Both the position numbers and the translations under genes were made by a program. From a virus (Duplodnaviria > Heunggongvirae > Uroviricota > Caudoviricetes): DNA of 49,583 nucleotides. Positions 30,577-31,320 of this stretch are shown piece by piece (positions within the stretch are counted from its first letter, which is position 1; the number at the start of each line of letters is the position of its first letter). The stretch is from the IMG/VR virus record IMGVR_UViG_2737471854_000004, positions 1 through 49,583 of that record; one strand, given 5' to 3'. The notes beneath the pieces are model-generated. The model ran no database searches. It was given only the letters and a program-made list of their open reading frames with translations, and was not told the DNA's origin.

Positions 30577-31320
30577 TTATTCTTGAGTAACACTTAAACT
30601 CATCTCATTGAATGCAGCCATCCTGTAACCTGCCGGTGTAACACCAAAATAACTCCTGAATACGCTGATAAAATAAGATGTAAAATTATAGCCGCACTGA
30701 GCAGCGATTCTGTTGATGGCGCAACGAGATTGATTCAACAGCATTGCTGCCATTCTCATTCTCTCTGTAAGCAACAACTCACTGAAACAGGTGCCTTCTT
30801 CTTTCAGTCTTTTTTTTAACAAACTTTCACTGATACATAACCGCGAAGACACATCTCTCAGAGTCCAGTTTGCTGCAATGTCCGTACGAAACAATGCACT
30901 AAGCCTGTCACTAATATTGCTAATACACGCGGTCAGAAACGACGAAAACATTTTCTCTGATGAGAAAAACGCCAGACACGAAAAGGAAAGCATTTCCGCT
31001 AAATTGTCCGTATGAATCTTTTCCTCACAAAGATAATCAATCAGGATGCCCATCAATTCTGCCTTGGGAAAACTCACGTAAAGATATCGTGGTATTTGCC
31101 GGACTAAAACTACATCCTGTTTTTCGTCTCCACACAACAGGTAACGGCTAATTGTCGATTCACTGAGACTTATTCGCCGAAAACATTCCGAAAAGGGCAA
31201 TAACGATCCAGCTCCCCCCCTGACAAGAAGTGCACTACCACTTTCAAGAGAGAGCTCTTTTCCTTCAAAGAGCACAACAAACGGGGAATGAACAAAAACA
31301 ACAGAACAGGCTTCATTCAT
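30577..31320 (-). CDS. AraC/XylS-family transcriptional regulator (moron)
   Basis: ORF 30577..31473; start moved to MNEACSV because the upstream part overlaps a terminator; C-terminal double-HTH region typical of GadX/AppY-like regulators; AT-rich. Confidence 0.65.
   Translation of the reverse strand: MNEACSVVFVHSPFVVLFEGKELSLESGSALLVRGGAGSLLPFSECFRRISLSESTISRYLLCGDEKQDVVLVRQIPRYLYVSFPKAELMGILIDYLCEEKIHTDNLAEMLSFSCLAFFSSEKMFSSFLTACISNISDRLSALFRTDIAANWTLRDVSSRLCISESLLKKRLKEEGTCFSELLLTERMRMAAMLLNQSRCAINRIAAQCGYNFTSYFISVFRSYFGVTPAGYRMAAFNEMSLSVTQE

Follow-up and report, generated by a model that had tools for sequence, protein, structure and literature searches.

Positions 30577-31320 of the IMG/VR virus record IMGVR_UViG_2737471854_000004 carry, on the minus strand, an intact gene that is predicted to encode a two-domain AraC/XylS transcription factor of the Escherichia coli YdeO/GadW/AppY/PatE/Psr group. 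The whole stretch of 49,583 nt was analyzed (hereafter, the window), and is a Rac-type lambdoid E. coli prophage with recET, kilR, ydaSTUV, ralR and its antitoxin RNA RalA, and intR adjoining ttcA. We consider it probable, at roughly 0.6, that the gene specifies a lysogenic-conversion regulator that is carried on a self-contained cassette in the late-operon leader of this prophage and acts on host genes. It adds an uncharacterized, clearly separate branch to the prophage-borne AraC regulators, and a literature search for this particular gene, or for an AraC regulator of Rac prophages, found nothing.

The open reading frame (ORF) begins with an ATG at 31320 and encodes 247 amino acids (aa), and the RefSeq annotation of the identical gene in E. 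coli O155 strain NWU_3 has the same ends. Its G+C content is 41.7%, compared with 45.9% for the window, 46.4% for the adjacent Q-like gene, and 51% and 55.7% for the holin and endolysin genes, so that its base composition is unlike that of the neighboring phage genes, as is expected of a moron in the sense of Juhala et al. (2000), an additional gene unit within a phage genome; an earlier note, made from the sequence alone, had described it as an AT-rich ORF of about 250 aa. All homologs start at a conserved M-x-x-x-C-S-V motif, which in the window corresponds to the ATG at 31320. A longer reading of 298 aa from a TTG at 31473 was dropped, as the upstream extension overlaps a terminator and is common to no homolog. 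Given the conserved start and an extension that runs over a terminator, the gene is no fragment of a larger disrupted ORF, which was the circumstance that the earlier note had named as fatal to its proposal. The frame is intact, and the protein covers the family alignment from the first to the last conserved residue. In a comparison with the allele of strain W13-16 (90.7% identical), dS (synonymous divergence) was 0.234 and dN (nonsynonymous divergence) 0.066, and the resulting dN/dS of 0.28 indicates a working gene under purifying selection.

The C-terminal part of the protein is a domain of about 100 residues with a double helix-turn-helix (HTH), located as follows:

30622-30921, minus strand: predicted DNA-binding domain with two HTH motifs (residues 134-233; Pfam HTH_18 and HTH_AraC)

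Both AraC/XylS profiles of Pfam were matched above their curated cutoffs, HTH_18 over residues 158-233 (E 1.9e-13; 50.9 bits, cutoff 33.6) and HTH_AraC with an E-value of 3e-13 (50 bits, cutoff 26.6), in agreement with the C-terminal AraC-type double HTH proposed earlier. The predicted recognition helices of the two motifs are ISESLLKKRLKEEG (first) and FTSYFISVFRSYFG. When solved structures were searched with phmmer, the best match was the DNA-binding domain of GadX (3mkl, E 1.7e-22), followed by Rns (8.5e-18, residues 88-231), CsvR and ToxT. An AlphaFold model built from 56 homologs had a mean predicted local distance difference test (pLDDT) score of 86.6, with values of 88-97 over residues 150-230, and its C-terminal domain was superimposed by Foldseek on 3mkl with a template modeling (TM) score of 0.90-0.92 and a root-mean-square deviation of 0.9-1.1 Å. 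MarA and SoxS were also matched, and the modeled domain has the seven-helix DNA-binding fold seen in MarA and GadX. Identity to the characterized relatives is 42-49% across the DNA-binding domain and 57-79% across its first recognition helix (helix 3, ISESLLKKRLKEEG). Residue K169, which is invariant in the alignment, is the equivalent of K170 of AppY, a lysine that is needed for DNA binding by AppY and whose change to glutamate has been used to disable it (AppY paper). By homology, the protein would bind DNA sequence-specifically and control transcription. The N-terminal domain is far less similar to the characterized relatives, with identities of only 14-32%. For the whole chain, the best structural matches were Rns, CsvR and ToxT (Foldseek E 3e-12 to 6e-8), which are fatty-acid-responsive AraC virulence regulators; they are the best full-length fold matches of the model, which implies no ligand. 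These three share only about 20% identity with the protein, and the whole-chain TM score is about 0.42 because the domains sit differently.

Homology searches against GadX, GadW, YdeO, AppY and the prophage-encoded AraC regulators, as had been recommended at the outset, placed the protein in the YdeO/GadW/AppY/PatE/Psr clade. The best NCBIfam model was that of YdeO (NF007407, an equivalog; residues 2-230), with GadX second, and the score of 148.3 bits falls so far under the cutoff of 348 that the predicted protein is not a YdeO ortholog. Homology with YdeO, GadW, AppY, PatE and PsrA/PsrB is collinear and full-length by BLASTP (residues 1-232), including the N-terminal MxxxCSV start. The reference proteins were taken from annotated genomes, and their identities over residues 1-232 were:

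ECs_0287 (Sakai Sp1, PatE-type): 37-39%
PsrB: 37%
PsrA: 36%
YdeO: 34-36.5%
GadW: 35-36%
AppY: 28-30%
GadX and EnvY: align with the C-terminal half only

In a neighbor-joining tree the protein and its relatives of 75-98% identity form a subclade of their own, and both the tree and the multiple alignment put this subclade within the YdeO/GadW/AppY/PatE/Psr group, apart from GadX, EnvY and AdiY. On present evidence of sequence, therefore, the protein belongs to this group and is not orthologous to YdeO, PsrA/B, PatE or AppY.

The second line of evidence concerns the way in which the gene is carried. Its surroundings in the window, all on the minus strand unless a repeat, are these:

31550-32092, minus strand: DUF1133 gene, in the position of the late antiterminator Q (Pfam DUF1133, E 1e-106)
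31440-31466, minus strand: intrinsic terminator, the 5' edge of the cassette (stem 31466-31447 and a T-run)
31321-31446, minus strand: leader of 126 bp (G+C 38%), which travels with the gene
30516-30571, minus strand: strong, terminator-like hairpin directly after the stop codon, the 3' edge of the cassette (inner G+C stem and a U-run)
30148-30223, minus strand: tRNA-Arg with anticodon UCU, reading AGA (ARAGORN; Rfam tRNA, 47.8 bits)
30526-30551 and 29720-29745: the two copies of a 26-bp terminator-like direct repeat, the latter (copy 1) just upstream of the holins
28558-29595, minus strand: lysis cassette (Pfam Phage_holin_8, Phage_holin_3_7 and Peptidase_M15_4; RefSeq annotation of near-identical regions agrees)
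29203-29595, minus strand: holin
28938-29213, minus strand: second holin
28558-28941, minus strand: M15 endolysin (M15 peptidase)

Read along the minus strand, the order is thus DUF1367 (32379-32978), YbcO/DUF1364 (32089-32379), DUF1133, terminator, leader, AraC gene, hairpin, tRNA-Arg, holins and endolysin. The gene had been described as a moron lying after a terminator (31442-31466), between the Q-like gene and the lysis cassette and ahead of the tRNA, and each element of that description was recovered, including the terminator itself, which has a stem of seven pairs, five of them G-C, followed by TTTTTTAT, and is also common to backbones that lack the regulator gene. The hairpin at 30516-30571 has a folding energy of -40.4 kcal/mol (z = -4.85), which was equaled by none of 200 shuffled sequences; it provides the gene with a downstream terminator of its own, another property of morons, and is a conserved 3' edge of the cassette.

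That the gene is an insertion is seen from the Rac-like prophage of E. coli W, which is otherwise collinear. There, Q and the terminator are followed by tRNA-Thr, tRNA-Gly and the same holins, and the regulator gene is absent; the sequence is homologous to that of the window as far as 31445, and again from the tRNA onward, so genes that are adjacent in the related phage are separated here by the regulator. Conversely, a unit of about 950 bp, consisting of the terminator, the 126-bp leader, the gene and the hairpin (30519 or 30526 to 31466), recurs in other backbones. In the O139:H1 strain W13-16, which has a different Q, homology begins at 31466 and the cassette follows a Phage_antitermQ-type Q and two genes on the opposite strand; in A19 it follows DUF1133 and an inserted gene, and in 08-00022 it adjoins TerB and DUF3927 genes. 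In all three, cassette homology ends at 30526 or 30519. Context was analyzed for 43 of the 46 IMG/VR loci that carry the gene. The terminator and leader lie upstream in every one (43/43) and holin genes lie downstream in 34/43, but a DUF1133 gene is upstream in only 20/43, with Phage_antitermQ (PF06530) or Antiterm (PF03589) proteins as the upstream Q in the others. The cassette therefore moves between phage backbones; it invariably follows a Q-type gene, is oriented with the late genes and is found behind members of three unrelated Q families. Its absence from the E. coli W backbone, its recurrence behind these families and its deviant base composition bear out the moron assignment. Intact copies of the gene, at 90% identity or more, are present in 65 of the 5426 complete E. 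coli genomes (about 1.2%), in addition to the 46 IMG/VR loci, and no close relative turned up when one genome per bacterial species was scanned; within E. coli, it is thus a rare accessory gene. Carriers among the matches are often from cattle, pigs (enterotoxigenic E. coli and O139:H1 edema-disease strains), manure or wild animals, a pattern given here as noted and without a statistical test, and in 08-00022 the adhesin gene paa lies in the same prophage region.

The DUF1133 protein also matches Phage_antitermQ, marginally (27.5 bits, cutoff 26), and phage records annotate it as antitermination protein Q. We know of no experimental demonstration of a Q role for DUF1133 proteins, and the finding of an identical AraC cassette behind members of the DUF1133, Phage_antitermQ and Antiterm families lends that role indirect support.

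Regulators of this kind have been described at the same place in other prophages, and the earlier note's appeal to prophage-encoded AraC proteins was apt. PsrA and PsrB, secretion regulators of enterohemorrhagic E. coli (EHEC) O157:H7, are encoded between Q and the tRNA and lysis genes of lambdoid prophages, are of similar size (about 237-247 aa), share a clade with the window protein and can be aligned with it from the MxxxCSV motif. In a 2026 publication by the group that described the Psr regulators, psrA is ecs1087 of prophage Sp4 (PMC13502914), and in the Sakai genome ecs1087 comes after ECs_1084, the Q antiterminator, and two small genes and lies directly before the tRNAs ileZ-argN-argO and the lysis region. 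Two reviews instead give psrA as z1789 on O-island 50 (OI-50; CP-933N), but tblastn with the window protein and nine AraC references found no AraC-type gene in Sakai Sp6 or EDL933 CP-933N, and the assignment to z1789/OI-50 appears to be wrong or strain-specific. In EDL933 OI-57, a candidate for psrB lies between a DUF1133 gene (79% identical to that of the window) and tRNA-Ile and tRNA-Arg genes. Its AraC-type product is 91% identical to PsrA, and because this matches the published figure of 90% for PsrB (z2104, OI-57; reviews), we take the gene to be psrB. The resemblance has its limits, as the window protein shares only 36-37% identity with PsrA and PsrB and forms a separate subclade, so it is not a close relative of theirs, and psrA and psrB are preceded by a small ORF that the window lacks.

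The other characterized relatives differ more in location. PatE (z0321 of CP-933H, of the type of ECs_0287 in Sakai Sp1, which was taken as PatE from its position in Sp1 and not from an accession) has the highest identity of the characterized set (37-39%), the same length of 247 aa and a first recognition helix that is 79% identical, whereas PatE-type genes lie at the tail-fiber/integrase end of the prophage (Sp1, ev099 and mEp332). AppY, from the DLP12 prophage of E. coli K-12, is likewise prophage-borne, belongs to the same clade and has the key lysine that is kept as K169, but is only 28-30% identical and is encoded past the tail-fiber genes, at the far end of DLP12. YdeO and GadW, the chromosomal activators of gadE in E. 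coli K-12, are encoded by core or acid-island genes rather than by prophage cargo. In its insertion site the gene also resembles stx and the other morons that lie downstream of PR' in lambdoid phages, which occupy the region between Q and the holin genes, often near tRNAs for rare codons, the difference being that stx-type cargo is a toxin and the present cargo a regulator. Other examples of regulators in this region include an AraC-type gene between Q and S of phage Lambda_ev245, and a psr-like gene of phiSTEC1575-Stx2k that is found just before tRNA genes and stx2AB.

If the gene is a lysogenic-conversion regulator, the N-terminal beta/alpha domain (residues 1 to about 130) would dimerize and perhaps sense a signal, while the two HTH motifs would bind AT-rich sites near promoters and activate host genes. 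The likeliest targets, as for the relatives, would be promoters within the acid fitness island, of gadE and the hdeA type, with possible knock-on effects on motility, biofilm or, in hosts that carry the enterocyte effacement locus (LEE), type III secretion. An action on host acid-resistance or virulence genes is suggested by analogy: gadE or hdeA and acid-resistance AR2 genes are targets of PsrA/B, of PatE and of AppY, whose secondary effects extend to type III secretion, motility or biofilm (AppY paper; reviews).

Several observations weigh against this interpretation. Identity to every characterized relative is low (28-39%, and 14-32% in the N-terminal domain), so that the regulon and the input signal could differ from theirs, and the YdeO equivalog score of 148 bits is well short of the cutoff of 348. 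The genes that accompany Psr regulators were not detected, as tblastn of PchA, the OI-57 PerC protein, NleG7 and EspK gave no match in the window, and the annotation of near-identical prophages lists no such Pch/PerC or type III effector gene. The window holds no host promoter, and prophage genes are the targets of most prophage-encoded regulators examined to date (AppY paper). Lastly, a scan for consensus sigma-70 promoters between the upstream terminator and the start codon found none, and with a terminator upstream and no such promoter, expression may occur in the lysogen, after induction, or at both stages.

A relaxed hexamer scan of the leader gave only weak candidates, TTGTAT-15 nt-TATACT and TTGCGA-19 nt-TATTTT, which match at 8 of 12 positions and are poorly spaced. 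The TATACTTA box resembles -10 elements of the stationary-phase type. Between two allele groups, the proximal 60 bp or so of the leader is about 90% conserved, much like the coding region, and the distal part is more diverged. Transcription could then proceed from a weak, non-consensus leader promoter, possibly of a stationary-phase type or factor-dependent, while the prophage is repressed; alternatively or additionally, a Q-modified polymerase would read through the upstream terminator after induction. Expression in the lysogen is favored, rather than proved, by findings on the related PsrA: in EHEC lysogens, levels of the psrA transcript respond to the small RNA (sRNA) HnrS, and PsrA/GadE are reportedly activated after attachment (PMC13502914).

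The read-through route raises the question of whether the protein is a late-phase factor, made mainly after induction, as is stx2, and acting in the lysing cell or on the late genes of the phage. The terminator that lies directly upstream, the leader that lacks a consensus promoter and a cassette that follows a Q gene whichever of the three Q families is present would fit such a role, as would the psr-like gene of phiSTEC1575-Stx2k, which shares a transcription unit with tRNA genes and stx2AB. We nevertheless regard this as unlikely, since the HnrS response of psrA and the activation of PsrA/GadE after attachment were reported for lysogens, deletion of psrA alters secretion (reviews), and the cassette brings a leader and a downstream terminator with it wherever it occurs, as would suit an autonomous unit; nor is it evident what an AraC activator would do in a cell minutes away from lysis. 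A different target has also to be considered, namely that the protein controls genes of prophages, or others gained horizontally, for example by countering the H-NS silencing of AT-rich cargo in this or other prophages, and not the core acid-resistance regulon. Besides the general precedent for prophage-encoded regulators cited above, AraC-type virulence regulators are described as recognizing AT-rich DNA and derepressing H-NS-repressed genes, the window carries other AT-rich cargo such as a HEPN gene of 32% G+C, and Rns, CsvR and ToxT, to which the model is structurally closest over its full length, are virulence regulators. Yet all four characterized prophage-borne members of the clade (AppY, PatE, PsrA and PsrB) act on chromosomal gadE/hdeA, and the cassette moves without any fixed partner gene, which makes a regulator of this sort quite unlikely here.

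The gene is very unlikely to be cargo that has fallen silent and is decaying without any current function. The missing consensus promoter, the rarity of the gene (about 1.2% of complete E. coli genomes) and the existence of truncated copies in databases (P0006-P0011) could be read in that way, but the frame is intact across the whole family alignment, dN/dS is 0.28 over a dS of 0.23, and the gene is conserved in many lineages and phage backbones. A function in defense was also tried, and PADLOC found no match for the AraC gene or the neighboring cargo. More speculatively, the divergent N-terminal domain and the Rns/ToxT-like fold might mark a functionally distinct subfamily that is read in two modes, from a weak leader promoter in the lysogen and by strong Q read-through, and that couples induction to a stress or virulence regulon other than that of GadE; this too seems quite improbable. 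The lysogenic-conversion regulator acting on host genes remains our preferred interpretation.

The tRNA-Arg gene is neighboring cargo and lies outside the AraC cassette. A tRNA-Arg(UCU) adjoins the regulator gene in a minority only (2/43 IMG/VR loci, and also ZYB62 and C41). psrA and psrB likewise have ileZ and arg tRNA genes after them. Nine of the 17 arginine codons of the regulator gene are AGA or AGG, as against 0-3 such codons in each of the neighboring phage genes. The segment bearing the tRNA is flanked by the two copies of the 26-bp direct repeat, which are 92% identical and 806 bp apart, and in A19 and 08-00022 the cassette joins straight onto the 29720-29745 sequence with no tRNA segment between. 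This suggests that cargo in the slot between Q and the holins, which would amount to a stack of cassettes, is exchanged through recombination between similar terminator sequences. Convergent anti-sRNA genes have been reported for the moron site, but no Rfam match to them was found here at either the gathering or the E-value threshold, and the sole additional Rfam match, a sub-threshold Trp_leader lying over the terminator, was taken as chance.

Other accessory genes are found elsewhere in the window. Two type I toxin-antitoxin loci are present at 33442-33765 (hok/sok; Rfam sok, 91.7 bits) and 47849-48027 (ralR and RalA, 223.8 bits). The HEPN gene (34201-35622, minus strand) encodes a 473-aa protein of the LA2681 type and lies between the replication genes and hok/sok; it had no PADLOC match. 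E. coli W has three genes in its place (DUF262, an AAA ATPase and one more), and ZYB62 has an S8 peptidase and an AAA ATPase there, so the site looks like a variable and possibly anti-phage cargo hotspot. At 37013-39318 (plus strand), where NWU_3 has a single hypothetical protein of 756 aa, the window has two frames that overlap at about 38449-38455 (tblastn identities of 99.8% and 100%), a split that is due to a frameshift or a sequencing error, and an integrase fragment of 157 aa (36172-36645) adjoins it. A 391-aa protein with the N-terminal domain of a type I restriction R-subunit (HSDR_N), encoded at 6979-8154 (minus strand) among the baseplate and tail genes, may be another cargo gene, and it also had no PADLOC match.

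Prophage AraC regulators such as AppY, PatE, PsrA and PsrB plug into the acid-resistance and virulence circuits of E. coli, and help to explain strain differences in gut survival and colonization. The cassette described here shows one mode by which such regulators spread, as a unit of about 950 bp that lies between terminator-like hairpins and is found after Q antiterminators that are unrelated. Should the regulator act on the gadE/hdeA promoters, it would represent a further phage route to altered acid tolerance in a food-chain bacterium, and should it not, the slot would carry regulators with other regulons.

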